Origin: Christensenella sp. UBA7102
GTDB lineage: Bacteria; Bacillota; Clostridia; Christensenellales; UBA1750
Direction of reading: 5' to 3'
Length of the DNA: 64,000 nt
Assembly (NCBI GenBank): GCA_002492415.1
Contig: DKYK01000038.1
Coordinates: 47,028-111,027 of the forward strand
The notes beneath the pieces were generated by a model, which made no database searches, was not told where the DNA came from, and saw only the letters and a list, made by a program, of their open reading frames with translations. The position numbers and the translations under genes were made by a program. Every line of letters starts with the position of its first letter. The stretch's first letter is position 1. Of the stretch, positions 5,857 to 10,196 are shown in pieces.

Positions 5857-6327
5857 ATGAAAAAAAAGATCATTTTGCGCAGCCTTTTGGGGTTTCCGCT
5901 CGGCTTGGCGCTGGGATACGCGATTACGATTCTTCTTTCCCTCCTGCAGGCAAACGGAACCTACTTCCCGTGCGCGCCCGAGCTGACCCTCGCGTTGGGG
6001 AGCGAGATCAACGCCGTTTTGCTGCAGGCGCTTCTGTGCGGAATACTGGGCTCCGGCTTTGCCGCCGCATCCGTCATATGGGAAATGGAGGATTGGGGAC
6101 TCGTCCGGCAGACTGGCGTCTATTTCCTGTTCATTTCCGTATTCATGATGCCGATCGCATACGTCGCGCACTGGATGGAGCACAGCGTAAAGGGTGTTCT
6201 GGTTTACTTTGGATTATTCTTTGTCATCTTTGTTGCAATATGGATCGTGCAGTACGGGATCGCTGTGCGCAACGTGAAAAAGCTAAATGAGACTCTGCAC
6301 CGGAAACAGCGCGATCCATGCAAGTAA
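5857..6327 (+). CDS. DUF3021-like membrane protein, probable partner of the LytTR regulator
   Basis: About 4 TM segments. MKKKIILRSLLGFPLG follows AGGTGAG. An alternative ATG at 5842 overlaps the upstream stop (ATGA). Confidence 0.75.
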   Translation: MKKKIILRSLLGFPLGLALGYAITILLSLLQANGTYFPCAPELTLALGSEINAVLLQALLCGILGSGFAAASVIWEMEDWGLVRQTGVYFLFISVFMMPIAYVAHWMEHSVKGVLVYFGLFFVIFVAIWIVQYGIAVRNVKKLNETLHRKQRDPCK

Positions 6328-6366
6328 AGCCAGACCACATCCGTTCCGCCCGCCCATAATGAACCA

Positions 6367-6410
6367 ACGCCCGCCGAATAGCAGCTGCTTTCCGGCGGGC
6401 GTCCGCTTTC
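6367..6410. terminator. hairpin between convergent genes
   Basis: A 10-bp stem (ACGCCCGCCG / CGGCGGGCGT). The T-tracts are weak. Confidence 0.5.
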
Positions 6411-6427
6411 CTGTGGAGAACTTTCCA

Positions 6428-7663
6428 TCAGGCTTTCTTTTCTTTCTCTCTTACAAACAATGTGCTGACAAACAGCGTCACGGGGAACACCGTCCCCAGC
6501 AGCAGTCCGGCCTTGAGCCCCAGCTGCTCCGCCGACATCCCCGTCTGTGCGGCGAACTGCGCAAGCTGCGGCGCGGCCTGCACGCCGTCGGAGACCATAC
6601 CTGCCAGCCACGGCCCCACCGAGCAACCCAGATCGCCCATCACGGCCAGCACGGCAAACAGCGCCGTGCCCGCCATCGGAAACCGCGCCGCCGACATGGA
6701 CAGCGCGCCCGGCCACATGATGGAGACCGAGAAGCCGCACACCGCGCAGCCCGCCAGCGCCGCCACAGGATTCCCCGAAAGCGCCGCCGTCAGGTAACAC
6801 GCAACGCACAGCAATCCGCAGCCTATCAAGCTCCGTTTCAACGGCAGACGGCTGCCCATTTTGCCATATAGCAGCCGTCCGCAGCCCATCAGCACCGCAA
6901 ACATGCACGGCCCAGCCAGATCGCCCACTACCTTGCTGACGCCCAGCGCGCGCTCTGCAAACGTGGAGGCCCATTGGCTCATCACCAGCTCGCTCGCCCC
7001 CGCGCAGACCATGATGAGCATCGCCACCAGGAACGCGGGCGTGCGCAGCAGCGCGCCCAGCCGCATGCCTCCGCCCTCGCCGCCCACCACTGGGGCAAAG
7101 GGCGCGCGCACGAACAGCGCCGCCGCGCCCACCGGCACGATCACCCAGCACAGCGGCAGCACCTGCCACGCGCTGCGCCCGATCACAAACAGCAACAGCG
7201 TCGAACCCAGCACCGTGGCCACCTGCCCCCAGCAGTAGAAAGAGTGCAGCATACTCATCGCCGCAGCCTTTTCATCTCCGGGCATGGCCTCGATGGTGGG
7301 ACTGACCAGCACCTCGACAAGCCCGCCGCCCACCGCCATCAGGATTACCGCGATGGATAGCCCAATATAGGGCGGCAGCAACGCAGGCAGCGCCGAAAGC
7401 AGTACCAGCCCCAACGCAATGCAAATCTGCCCGCCGATCAGACAGGCGCGGTAGCCGAATTTCTCCGCCAGCTTGATGGAGATCATATCCACGCAAAGCT
7501 GGGTGAAAAAATTCATCAAAATCAATCGCCCCAGCATCTCGTAAGAGATTCCGTACTGCTGTTGAAACACCACAAACAGCAGCGCAGGCAGGTTATTCTG
7601 TATCGCCTGCGCAATAATGGCCCCGTAGCAGGCCAGCTTGGTCGTCCGGTAAGTCGGTCTCAT
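6428..7663 (-). CDS. MFS transporter
   Basis: About 12 TM segments. I prefer the start MRPTYRTTKLACYG (ATG 7661-7663), which follows GGGAGCAGAGGG. The track start at 7681 has no SD. This is the last gene of a three-gene minus-strand operon. Confidence 0.85.
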   Translation of the reverse strand: MRPTYRTTKLACYGAIIAQAIQNNLPALLFVVFQQQYGISYEMLGRLILMNFFTQLCVDMISIKLAEKFGYRACLIGGQICIALGLVLLSALPALLPPYIGLSIAVILMAVGGGLVEVLVSPTIEAMPGDEKAAAMSMLHSFYCWGQVATVLGSTLLLFVIGRSAWQVLPLCWVIVPVGAAALFVRAPFAPVVGGEGGGMRLGALLRTPAFLVAMLIMVCAGASELVMSQWASTFAERALGVSKVVGDLAGPCMFAVLMGCGRLLYGKMGSRLPLKRSLIGCGLLCVACYLTAALSGNPVAALAGCAVCGFSVSIMWPGALSMSAARFPMAGTALFAVLAVMGDLGCSVGPWLAGMVSDGVQAAPQLAQFAAQTGMSAEQLGLKAGLLLGTVFPVTLFVSTLFVREKEKKA

Positions 7664-7688
7664 ACGCCCTCTGCTCCCCATCTGTATT

Positions 7689-8807
7689 TTATTTCATCAA
7701 TGTCAACGCTTCGGCGCACTCCTCTACGCGGCGCAGCACGATCTTCACCTCTTCGTCCGTAAGCAACAGCAGGTTGAGCGTAATGCCGTTCGGGCTGTCG
7801 TCCGAGCGCGCGGCAAGGATCGCCGGGTCGCCTTTTTCCAGCATTTCCACCAGAGCCTCGGCCGAATACGATCCCAGTATGTCCAACGCCATGCGCGGAT
7901 AGTTCTGCCCCTGCGGGCCGGGGATCACCCTGCGGCACTCAAAATAGCCCGCACGCTCCACGCGATGGCTCTCCTCGCGGATGATGCGGTTGACGCGCTC
8001 GATGCGCTCGGCATAATCGTCCCCCGCCAAATACTCCTCCAGCGCCGCAAACAGCCCTACGATTTCCTCCCTGCCGATATTGGCCACGGAAGCTACGCTG
8101 TGCCGGGGCGGCGCTATGGACAGAATCGCATCGGTCAGCCATTTTTTTCCTACCACAAGCCCGCTGCCTGACGGACCGCGCAGCGCGCGCCCGCCTGCAA
8201 AAATCGCGGCGGCGGCGCCGGCCTTGGTGTACCTCCACAGGCTCTCCTTGGGCGGAATCTGTGCCGCGGCGTTGACCACCAGCGGCAGCCCCGCCTCGTT
8301 TGCCACGGACAGCGCCTCCTCAAAGGTCAGCGTATTTCTGTCGTGCAGCTCCGCGTAAAAGATCGCGCAGGTGCGCTCGGTGATGGCTGCGCGCAGTTTC
8401 TCGCACTCATGCGCGCCCGCGTCTGCCATGACCAGGCGCGCGCCCATCACGCACATCTCGCCTTCAAAATAGGCCATTTGCGACTTGAGCACGAGAATCT
8501 CATTGCGCAGGCCCTGCGCATCCGGCAGTCGCATCATCTTATCGAAATCGCCGCCCGTCATCAGCACAGCGGCGCATAGCATCAGGCCCGCGGCAGTGCC
8601 CAATACCACCACCGCACCCTCGTTGTCCGTCATCTCGGCAATGCGAGCTCCCACTGCGCGATGAAGCTCATCCATGCGCACAAAGGAGTGCGACGCTTCC
8701 TCCATCGCGTCCAGCACCGTCTGGGTGGGCAGACTGCCGCCCAGGGAGGAGAGAAAGTCCAGCGCGTTGATGTATGTTTTGACCTTCAGTTCCTTGTAGA
8801 CCGTCAC
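7689..8807 (-). CDS. SelA/DgaE-like PLP-fold protein, paralog B (Arg at the expected PLP-lysine position)
   Basis: It aligns end to end with the upstream paralog. The motif is IFAGGRALRGPSGSGLVVGKK, where SelA has FSGDKLLGGPQAGIIVGKK. The GTG start overlaps the upstream stop (GTGA at 8804-8807). Confidence 0.8.
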   Translation of the reverse strand: MTVYKELKVKTYINALDFLSSLGGSLPTQTVLDAMEEASHSFVRMDELHRAVGARIAEMTDNEGAVVVLGTAAGLMLCAAVLMTGGDFDKMMRLPDAQGLRNEILVLKSQMAYFEGEMCVMGARLVMADAGAHECEKLRAAITERTCAIFYAELHDRNTLTFEEALSVANEAGLPLVVNAAAQIPPKESLWRYTKAGAAAAIFAGGRALRGPSGSGLVVGKKWLTDAILSIAPPRHSVASVANIGREEIVGLFAALEEYLAGDDYAERIERVNRIIREESHRVERAGYFECRRVIPGPQGQNYPRMALDILGSYSAEALVEMLEKGDPAILAARSDDSPNGITLNLLLLTDEEVKIVLRRVEECAEALTLMK

Positions 8808-9943
8808 GCCTTCGCGCCCCCCTTGTTCAGCTTTTCATAGCAGGAAACCATGCCCGCCACGAGCACGGGCACCTCCTCCGGTTCCATATTGAGCGTGTTG
8901 ACGGTGACGCCGTTGTGCCACTCCCACGCCCCCACCAGGATGCCGGGATCCAGCGCCAGCAGCGCGTCCTTGAGCGCCATGGCGGGCACGTTGCCCAGCA
9001 CCTCCACGCCCAGCCACCGGTAAGTCTGGCCCGACGGCCCGGGGTAGAGCACCGAGGTCTTAAAATATCCCGTATCATCCAACGCCTGTGCGATGCGCTC
9101 GCGCATGGCGCTCATGTTCCTGAGCCGCTTTTCCATCTGCCCAGGCTGCAAAAACGCCTTGAGCGCCTGATAAACGCTGATGATCTCCTCGCGGCCCTCC
9201 TTGGTGGTACGCGCAATGCCTGTGCACGGCGGTACGACCATCTTCATCAAATCCACCAGCGCGCGGCGGCCGACGAGTATCCCGCTCTGCTGCGCCCCTC
9301 GGATGGCCTTTCCTCCGGCAAAAATCGCCAGATCTGCCCCATTGTCCACGGTGTAGCGCCACAGGTTCTCCATCGGCGGCAGCTGGCCTGACGCCTGCAC
9401 CACCATAAACGCGTCGTGCTGATGCGCCAGCAGCGTCAAGCGGCGCAACGGCGGGCACTTGGCGGAAAGATCCTGCGTATCGCAGTAAACGACGGCGCAG
9501 GTGCGCGGTGTGATGGCTGCCTCCACATCCTCAATCGTCACATGTTTTCCCAGTCCTACGTCCACCACCTTGCCGCCCGCGGCGCGTATGGCAAAGCTGA
9601 CCGAGCTTTTCCGCTCCCGGATCACAATGAATTCATTGCGCAGCCCCGTGCTGTCCGGCAGTTTGGCAAACAGTTCGGGCTCGGGGTGCCGCACCATGCA
9701 CACGGCGCTGGCGATGAGCATACTCGCCGCCGTGCCCGCAGTGACAAACGCCGCCTCGTTTCCCGTCATGTGCGCAATCTCGCGCCCCACAGCCTCCCGC
9801 AAATCCTCAATGTGCACATAAGCGGATGCTGCGTCCCGCATCGCGTCCAGCGTCTCCTTCTCCATGCGCGAGGAGCCGTAGGCCGACACCGCATCCCACG
9901 CGTTGATATACTTTTTTACCTTGAGCCGCTGATAAATATCCAT
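8804..9943 (-). CDS. SelA/DgaE-like PLP-dependent enzyme, paralog A (lysine retained)
   Basis: The motif IFAGGKAIRGAQQSGILVGRR retains the lysine (codon AAG at 9308-9310). The start MDIYQRLKVKKYINAWD at 9943 is preceded by AAAGGAGGAAAG. Confidence 0.8.
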   Translation of the reverse strand: MDIYQRLKVKKYINAWDAVSAYGSSRMEKETLDAMRDAASAYVHIEDLREAVGREIAHMTGNEAAFVTAGTAASMLIASAVCMVRHPEPELFAKLPDSTGLRNEFIVIRERKSSVSFAIRAAGGKVVDVGLGKHVTIEDVEAAITPRTCAVVYCDTQDLSAKCPPLRRLTLLAHQHDAFMVVQASGQLPPMENLWRYTVDNGADLAIFAGGKAIRGAQQSGILVGRRALVDLMKMVVPPCTGIARTTKEGREEIISVYQALKAFLQPGQMEKRLRNMSAMRERIAQALDDTGYFKTSVLYPGPSGQTYRWLGVEVLGNVPAMALKDALLALDPGILVGAWEWHNGVTVNTLNMEPEEVPVLVAGMVSCYEKLNKGGAKA

Positions 9944-9966
9944 CCGCTTTCCTCCTTTTCCCCAAA

Positions 9967-9995
9967 AGGATATCAAACCCTTCCTGTTTTGTCAA
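9967..9995 (-). promoter_or_regulatory. SigA-type promoter, TTGACA-17-TATCCT, for the SelA-like/MFS operon
   Basis: The -35 is perfect and the -10 is weak. The position is consistent with a short leader before the RBS at about 9950. Confidence 0.4.
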
Positions 9996-10106
9996 TCAAG
10001 TCCATGTTATGTACAAAAAAATACGTCAAAAAAATTAAACTTTCTCAGAACCATTCAAAAGAGACGGCCTTGGCTCCAACATCCGCCGATCCCGCAATGC
10101 AATAAT

Positions 10107-10143
10107 CCCTCCGTCCCTTCCCCTTTGGGGAGGGGACGGAGGG
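10107..10143 (-). terminator. very strong hairpin downstream of the metallophosphoesterase gene
   Basis: A 17-bp G+C-rich stem (CCCTCCGTCCCTTCCCC / GGGGAGGGGACGGAGGG) with a TTT loop. The U-tract is poor. Confidence 0.5.
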
Positions 10144-10196
10144 TCCGCCTCGCGCCCTATAACCCTATTCCGTTCTCATCCGTCCTATTCCCGCGC

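Follow-up and report, generated by a model that had tools for sequence, protein, structure and literature searches.

SelA, DgaE and Cap15 are the closest described relatives of the proteins encoded by two adjacent genes, here called A and B, in a stretch of 64,000 nucleotides (nt) from Christensenella sp. UBA7102 (contig DKYK01000038.1, positions 47,028 to 111,027; this whole stretch is called the window below). The active sites of SelA sit at the dimer interface, and in the E. coli enzyme pyridoxal 5'-phosphate (PLP) is carried by Lys 295, as the original prediction for this locus had stated (PMC11047290). In the SelA whose corresponding lysine is K285, S282 contacts the PLP phosphate and R312 and R315 bind selenophosphate (PMC4607533). 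DgaE, which is octameric as cited in PMC9529869, uses a 6-phosphate substrate delivered by a phosphotransferase system (PTS), and its operon includes an aldolase (DgaF); His162-His163 are strictly conserved in this enzyme and Arg226 is its carboxylate residue (PMC9529869). The original prediction knew DgaE as the only characterised member outside selenium metabolism, but Cap15, which acts in capuramycin biosynthesis as an O2- and PLP-dependent monooxygenase-decarboxylase (PMC6411801), is another, and is the best structural match. We put at about one in two the probability that A and B form an obligate heteromeric fold-type-I PLP enzyme, with one composite active site that acts on an imported, unphosphorylated amino compound.

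The A-B gene pair and its fold

In the window, three co-oriented genes on the minus strand follow each other in the order A, B and a major facilitator superfamily (MFS) transporter gene (Table 1). A and B are full-length, adjacent open reading frames (ORFs), as had been predicted, and their products of 379 and 372 amino acids (aa) are 36% identical over the full length (BLASTP, E = 2e-69). Gene A starts with an ATG after AAAGGAGG, and gene B with a GTG after a G-rich Shine-Dalgarno (SD) sequence. The GTGA in which the stop codon of A overlaps the start codon of B can be read directly in the window, and it is a case of translational coupling. All eight junctions that were read have such a 4-nt overlap, GTGA or ATGA, with an upstream GGGAGG or GGGGG SD sequence, and an ATGA overlap also occurs in the related contig L019.

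Table 1. Coordinates of the A-B locus and of corresponding features at related loci (L numbers).
Feature	Sequence	Position	Strand	Remarks
MFS transporter	window	6428..7663	minus	411 aa from conserved ATG 7663; first ATG of ORF at 7681
Gene B	window	7689..8807	minus	372-aa paralog of the same fold without catalytic residues; proposed non-catalytic partner
B loop H236-N243 (HSVASVAN)	window	8079..8102	minus	remodelled; Ser and Asn at the family's invariant Arg/Lys positions
B R207 codon CGC	window	8187..8189	minus	in FAGGRALRG; Arg at the Schiff-base Lys position
B N179 codon AAC	window	8271..8273	minus	at the N1-Asp position
GTGA overlap	window	8804..8807	minus	A's TGA (8806-8804) shares letters with B's GTG (8807-8805)
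Gene A	window	8804..9943	minus	379-aa SelA/DgaE/Cap15-fold protein, Schiff-base Lys kept; proposed catalytic subunit
A K212 codon AAG	window	9308..9310	minus	in FAGGKAIRG; aligns with DgaE K213, Cap15 K230, SelA K285/K295
A Q183 codon CAG	window	9395..9397	minus	position of the family-invariant Asp presumed to pair with the PLP pyridine nitrogen
Promoter-like site TTGACA-17 nt-TG-TATCCT	window	9967..9995	minus	about 24 nt upstream of the A ATG; 10/12 matches, TG extension
Conserved A promoter region	window; L022; L001; L007; L008	9960-10000; 7950-8000; 8810-8864; 3535-3590; 6810-6864		
Divergent SpoOB-type gene	L001; L007; L022	7982-8611; 2718-3410; 7130-7753		no homologue in the window

Protein A scores above the cut-off of the Pfam SelA family (PF03841; 35.7 bits against 22.8), and B matched no Pfam family. 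Both are well below the 385-bit cut-off of TIGR01437 (selA_rel/DgaE), with 140 bits for A and 170 bits for B, and below the cut-offs of the DgaE equivalog profile (145 and 132 bits against 600) and of TIGR00474, SelA proper (43.7 bits for A and 19.5 for B against 267.9). AlphaFold2 (AF2) models of the two proteins had predicted local distance difference test (pLDDT) values of 94.4 for A and 93.0 for B. In Foldseek comparisons (E values of 1e-25 to 1e-28) the best match in the PDB for both was Cap15 (8T7J, deposited as a holoenzyme), with a template modelling (TM) score of 0.88, a root-mean-square deviation of 2.2-2.4 Å and 26% identity. DgaE (7LC0) followed with TM 0.83 for A and 0.84 for B, and the next ranks were taken by SelA (TM about 0.62-0.67) and then by alpha-oxoamine synthases. 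From these models, A and B can confidently be predicted to adopt the SelA/DgaE/Cap15 variant of fold type I. They are members of this superfamily and not orthologues of DgaE, SelA or Cap15, since the cut-offs, the signature residues and the gene context all fail. Five family representatives (P0169, 671 aa; P0187, 762; P0248, 876; P0287, 1468; P0302, 827) are far longer than the usual 370-400 aa, which suggests fusions of a SelA/DgaE-like domain with additional domains.

Residue losses, co-occurrence and alternative readings

We aligned A, B and their clades with 123 other family members and then with 147 further representatives, counting clade residues from 14 sequences each; the survey of further members covered the top 150 of the 3,788 representatives that the whole family has in a library of 1.84 billion. 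In DgaE numbering, the residues invariant in the family are Asp189, the Ser and Lys of a Ser-Gly-x-Lys motif (S210 and K213), Arg242 and Lys245, and of these S210, K213 and R242/K245 correspond to S282, K285 and R312/R315 of SelA. The lysine-to-arginine position given in the original prediction is correct: K212 of A and R207 of B both align with the Schiff-base lysine of DgaE (residue 213 of the 7LC0 chain) and of Cap15 (8T7J), and K212 aligns as well with the HK/DK lysine of cysteine desulfurases and of A. aeolicus SelA. This column is lysine in 123 of 123 other members and in all full-length sequences among the 147 further ones. It is also lysine throughout the A clade, encoded by AAG or AAA, and arginine in all 14 sequences of the B clade.

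The lysine is not the only family-invariant residue to have changed. The Asp189 column is presumably the partner of the PLP pyridine nitrogen (N1), judging from the general fold-type-I pattern and from the alignment with cysteine desulfurases, whose vDgaQ Asp falls in it together with the yyDa of A. aeolicus SelA. It holds Asp in 123 of 123 other members and Asn in two of the 147 further representatives (P0176 and P0210), but Gln in 13 and Asn in one of the A-clade sequences, and Asn in 12, His in one and Cys in one of the B-clade sequences. The position of Ser210, a serine in 123 of 123 others, is Ala209 in A (Ser in two of the 14 A-clade sequences) and Ala204 in B (Ala in 13 of 14, Glu in one). 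Arg226 is present in every A-clade sequence, and its position in the B clade is mostly Lys and otherwise variable. The Arg242/Lys245 pair, invariant in about 270 other family members, is R245/K248 in the window's A and Ser240/Asn243 in 14 of 14 B-clade sequences; A-clade proteins of the Ca. S. merdavium type (a cluster of 151 sequences) have Tyr/Ser here, and other A-clade sequences may carry His at the first of the two positions and Arg at the second. A and B alike retain the glycine-rich G-T-A-A loop. At the His-His positions of DgaE the alignment has a gap and a Gln in A and gaps in B.

Five residues that are invariant in the family are therefore missing from B, namely the lysine, the N1 Asp, the Ser of the phosphate contact and both members of the Arg/Lys anion pair. 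In Cap15, the K230A variant is reported to keep its activity, and the K262A and K265A variants to be inactive (PMC6411801). K230 is the aligned Schiff-base lysine, and K262 aligns with K245 of DgaE, K248 of A and N243 of B. Thus the loss of the lysine, which had led to the description of B as a pseudo-enzyme, is real but is weak evidence by itself; it is the combined loss of the five residues that argues for a catalytically dead B. A, the supposed catalytic subunit, keeps Lys212 but is not canonical either, as its Asp is replaced by Gln and its Ser by Ala. A neutral residue at the N1-Asp position is compatible with a working pathway, as seen from the single-copy relative P0176 (Asp to Asn), whose gene lies with those of a 2-keto-3-deoxy-6-phosphogluconate (KDPG) aldolase, a PfkB kinase and an amidohydrolase.

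Related loci were found in seven Christensenellales lineages (Ca. Spyradocola and relatives), and in each of the 19 that contain a B-clade gene this gene directly follows one of the A clade, with the lysine/arginine asymmetry in every case. Both clades are sharply bounded: their members are at least 66% identical to the B, or at least 69% to the A, of the window, and the next proteins reach at most 47% and 36%, respectively. Each clade forms one 50%-identity cluster in the library, and the protein clusters of A and B each number about 400 members. In the GTDB set of species genomes, six species carry the pair, every one of them represented by a metagenome-assembled genome and belonging to Christensenellales-type Clostridia (Ca. 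Spyradocola spp. and "uncultured Christensenella/Catabacter"). Ca. Spyradocola sp. SUG2607 shares about 93% identity with the window. A metagenome scan added only three further B-clade loci.

Purifying selection acts on both genes. The ratio of nonsynonymous to synonymous substitution rates (dN/dS) for close pairs is 0.08-0.12 in A and 0.08-0.14 in B, and is 0.2-0.4 where dS is saturating. No B-clade sequence, down to the most distant at 66% identity, has anything but arginine at the R207 position, and the codon is CGC, CGG or CGT according to lineage. The low dN/dS together with this synonymous variation indicates that B is kept by selection and is not decaying. The asymmetry is not a peculiarity of one strain, a case that the original prediction had named as one that would refute it.

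Conservation was compared between A and B proteins from the same nine genomes, which represent nine related lineages. Over the whole protein, 228 of 379 sites (60%) are invariant in A and 179 of 372 (48%) in B, and in the segment of the lysine strand the figures are 20 of 24 for A and 14 of 25 for B (Fisher p = 0.06). In the loop with the family's Arg/Lys pair, about 29 residues after the lysine, only 7 of 17 sites are invariant in A against 14 of 17 in B (p = 0.03). Within B this loop (IAPPxHSxASVANIGREE) is more conserved than the rest of the protein, 14 of 17 sites as compared with 48% overall (p = 0.005). As far as the alignments tell, A holds the contacts to the cofactor and the carboxylate and varies the loop positions that are invariant in the family, and B lets those contacts drift and fixes a remodelled loop.

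The heteromeric enzyme that we propose would be made in a fixed ratio of A to B by way of the overlapping stop and start codons. A would carry PLP on Lys212 and bind the substrate carboxylate through Arg226, and its Gln183 would leave the pyridine nitrogen unprotonated, since Gln replaces Asp. B would be catalytically dead and retained as the obligatory dimer partner, with its loop H236-N243 probably completing the active site of A across the dimer interface. The reciprocal conservation is the pattern that an A:B heterodimer with one composite site would be expected to show, given the location of SelA active sites at the interface together with the geometry of the alpha-oxoamine synthases. The family's phosphate- or anion-binding pair, gone in B and no longer constrained in A, would go unused. 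Uptake, where the transporter gene is linked, would be by an MFS symporter and not by a PTS. The substrate would probably be a non-phosphorylated amino compound, for example an amino acid or amino-sugar acid, because the Arg/Lys pair is lost or relaxed and the linked genes include an MFS gene but neither a PTS nor a kinase. The chemistry would most likely be an elimination or deamination, as in DgaE.

Several points weigh against this proposal. It is uncertain whether A binds PLP, because the Asp and the Ser, both of them PLP contacts and invariant in the rest of the family, are missing from it. The sole support for an association of A with B is the pattern of reciprocal conservation, which is indirect and comes from only nine related lineages with p values of about 0.03-0.06. 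The putative role of the loop across the interface is drawn from alpha-oxoamine synthases, in which residues about 30 positions after the lysine reach the partner's site; in DgaE, SelA and Cap15 the corresponding loop, about 29 residues past the lysine, may reach over the interface or may serve the subunit to which it belongs. Two of the seven lineages (L008 and L011/L032/L033) have no MFS gene beside B. Finally, no PTS, kinase, aldolase or RidA gene linked to A-B was found among the flanking genes examined, and the absence of a linked kinase, aldolase or RidA leaves the pathway undefined.

The two proteins could also act separately, A as a homo-oligomeric enzyme and B with a new function of its own, for example as an enzyme with non-covalently bound PLP or pyridoxamine 5'-phosphate or as a substrate-binding protein, and their co-transcription would then reflect no more than a shared pathway. 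The reported activity of Cap15 K230A implies that loss of the lysine alone does not inactivate the fold, the pocket loop and R207 of B are strongly conserved, and A and B are not sister clades, B grouping with the canonical relatives P0017 and P0163 (92% bootstrap) and A with P0164. We nevertheless consider separate functions unlikely, as B has no equivalent of the Cap15 K262 reported to be essential and is without the Asp and the Ser, and its N179, A204 and K222, which align with cofactor and carboxylate positions, vary within the clade. The conserved 4-nt overlap and the strict one-to-one co-occurrence also argue for joint action, and reciprocal conservation would be unexpected for two independent homo-oligomers.

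It is improbable, in our judgment, that neither protein uses PLP and that the pair is a ligand-binding, regulatory or scaffolding complex built on an old fold. Such a role would agree with the loss from both clades of two residues, the N1 Asp and the phosphate Ser, that 123 of 123 and about 146 of 147 other members have, with the relaxed Arg/Lys pair of A, with the failure of B to match any Pfam family, and with the lack of linked downstream pathway genes. It would leave unexplained why the lysine (AAG or AAA) and R226 are kept in every A sequence, why the lysine strand is the best-conserved segment of A (20 of 24 sites), and why the G-T-A-A loop is kept in A and B alike, and the single-copy relative with an Asp-to-Asn change lies in a clear catabolic operon. 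A further idea, doubtful enough to be offered only as speculation, is that the chemistry of the SelA fold has been rebuilt in this pair: N1 would be paired with Gln, so that a protonated electron sink would be missing, as it is from fold-type-II enzymes, the remodelled loop of the pseudo-enzyme would supply the substrate half of the site, and the reaction or substrate class would be new for fold type I, or, in a more radical version, there would be no PLP and the role would not be enzymatic. Decay of B, as a duplicate on the way to becoming a pseudogene with the arginine as recent damage, is refuted, since B, although its rate of change is slightly higher than that of A (invariant sites 48% and 60%), keeps a full-length ORF in every lineage, has a dN/dS of 0.08-0.14 for close pairs, keeps its arginine through synonymous codon changes and its loop at 14 of 17 sites, and gives a confident AF2 model (pLDDT 93).

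Origin and surroundings of the pair

A neighbour-joining tree of the family had long branches and was taken cautiously. B grouped with the relative P0014 at 100% bootstrap, and this group then joined the canonical P0017 and P0163 (92%). Monophyly of A and B had a bootstrap value of about 5%, and the nearest relative of A was the canonical P0164. With B placed beside P0017 and P0163, a recent tandem duplication giving rise to A and B was rejected.

P0014, a deep-branching B-type protein, shares 58% identity with B, and its five key positions read Asn, Thr, Lys, Ala and Gly. Upstream of its gene on the contig (L019, 1.45 kb) lie the 11 final codons of an A-like gene (YYLLREGGVGA*), which end in the ATGA overlap mentioned above. 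Because P0014 keeps the lysine and is without the Asp and the Arg/Lys pair, the lysine appears to have been lost last in the line leading to B, a sequence of events read from one contig and from a protein that is a singleton: a search with P0014 for further lysine-bearing B-type intermediates showed it to stand alone. Downstream of P0014 (L019, 1171-1452) are about 280 nt of lower-GC sequence that contain no ORF, no MFS gene and no Rfam match.

The genes for P0017, P0163 and P0164 lie in clusters with short-chain dehydrogenases, YjgF/RidA-like proteins, amidohydrolases and a lactonase. Elimination as in DgaE, with an enamine or imine as product, would fit with the RidA/YjgF neighbours of the closest canonical relatives. 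The cluster that holds P0163, the closest canonical relative of B, is at L028 435-9147 (the same in L029) and has two SelA/DgaE-like genes, one of them fused to a short-chain dehydrogenase (676 aa), along with three YjgF/RidA-like genes, an Amidohydro_3 gene, three more short-chain dehydrogenase genes and a lactonase gene.

The transporter protein matched Pfam MFS_1 (E = 2e-20), FucP (3O7Q, E = 1.6e-4) and PRK10133 (E = 1.3e-4), and it is probably an importer with a weak likeness to FucP. It had been placed 8 nt after B; the first ATG of its ORF is 7 nt past the B stop codon, and the start common to its orthologues, with a GGGGAG SD sequence, is 25 nt past it. An orthologous gene lies 3' of B in five of the seven lineages. 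The dedicated importer of the original prediction is thus present in most lineages but is not a fixed part of the module. In L008 and L011/L032/L033, what comes after B is a hairpin resembling a terminator or, without anything between, ComEC, and the stable unit is therefore A-B, to which a transporter is usually but not always attached.

Upstream of A, the motif CTTGATTGACAAA...GTTTGGTAT(G/C)CT is kept in five other species. Conservation of this promoter region across species goes far past the two hexamers (CTTGATTGACAAA, about 10 nt, GTTTGGTAT(G/C)CT), and the region could include an operator that overlaps the promoter. A riboswitch or leader was rejected, as the Rfam search upstream of A gave zero matches at permissive and gathering thresholds alike and a promoter so close to the ATG leaves no room for one. 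A scan of the window for tRNA genes found none. Most relatives have a divergent gene of about 207-230 aa some 250 nt upstream of A, with a weak match to a SpoOB-type sensor-kinase helical domain. As a candidate for a linked regulator this gene, of about 207 aa, was rejected as part of the module because it is absent from the window (tblastn).

The genes flanking the pair vary by species (metallophosphoesterase, polysaccharide deacetylase, ComEC) and give no clue to its function. The metallophosphoesterase gene is followed, at 10105-10150 on the minus strand of the window, by CCCTCCGTCCCCTCCCCAAAGGGGAAGGGACGGAGGG, a GC-rich hairpin that is long and perfect; it is probably the terminator of that gene and separates it from the A-B-MFS operon. 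Just past the stop codon of the MFS gene (6361-6401, minus strand) come CGCCCGCCG...CGGCGGGCG, an inverted repeat rich in GC, and then TTGGTTCATT. This repeat may be the operon terminator; its loop is long, and the terminator scan did not call it. In L006, the closest relative (93% identical), the spacer from the metallophosphoesterase gene to A (6114-6864) is about 750 nt long, as compared with about 250 nt in the window, and is full of repeated GC-rich units such as GGGAGCGCGGGGG...CCTCATCCGG...CTTCTCCT(C/T)(A/G)AGGAGAAGG.

Comparison with known systems

A literature search for heteromeric SelA-like pairs or for PLP pseudo-enzymes in the SelA/DgaE/Cap15 family returned nothing relevant. If the proposal is right, A-B would be the first heteromeric member of the family to be described, as far as we have found, and a clean bacterial case of a PLP enzyme retained together with a dead paralog. 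The pair would also be a natural experiment on how far a fold-type-I site can be stripped under selection, with neither N1 Asp nor phosphate Ser, and on how the halves of an interface active site are split between duplicated subunits. A-B would also point to a metabolic function, so far uncharacterised, that only a small set of common gut Christensenellales has. It is well supported as a real, selected and unusual pair with a narrow taxonomic range, and has no bearing on a long-standing open question.

DgaE resembles A and B in its fold (TM 0.83-0.84), in its identity of about 25% over the whole length and in the position of the Schiff-base lysine, and it shares Arg226 with A. It is a homo-oligomer, whereas a heteromer is proposed for A-B. 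DgaE has the Asp, the Ser and His162-His163; A and B are without all three, and B is also without the lysine and the Arg242/Lys245 pair. The genes found with DgaE are those of a PTS and an aldolase, while A-B is found with an MFS gene and without a PTS, kinase or aldolase.

Cap15, as the best structural match, shows that the same fold supports chemistry beyond selenium transfer or deamination. It is the product of a single actinomycete biosynthetic gene and needs O2 and phosphate, whereas A-B consists of two genes, and the position of its K262 is Asn in B. The host of A-B belongs to a gut Clostridia lineage presumed to be anaerobic, which makes an O2-dependent reaction like that of Cap15 unlikely. 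SelA (3W1H, 8UZW) shares the fold-type-I core and the C-terminal domains, and the positions of its Ser-x-x-Lys motif and of its Arg312 and Arg315 are homologous. At about 450-460 aa, it has an N-terminal tRNA-binding domain, whereas A and B start at the core domain; they are not selenocysteine synthases.

Heteromers of fold type I with a paralogous subunit that lacks the lysine are known from eukaryotic serine palmitoyltransferase (LCB1/LCB2) and from the P-protein of glycine decarboxylase (GcvPA/GcvPB). In both, the duplicated subunit without the cofactor lysine is an obligatory partner, and there is one active site per heterodimer. A strictly co-encoded pair of paralogs of which one is without the lysine, as found here from the gene sequences, is what the logic of LCB1/LCB2 would lead one to expect. 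The pairing of an active subunit with a lysine-less partner is thus a known principle in other fold-type-I families and is most likely new for the SelA/DgaE/Cap15 family. LCB1/LCB2 and GcvPA/GcvPB differ from A-B in belonging to those other families and in having had their heteromers demonstrated biochemically, while the A:B heteromer is a proposal; in A-B, moreover, the subunit that keeps the lysine is itself without the N1 Asp.

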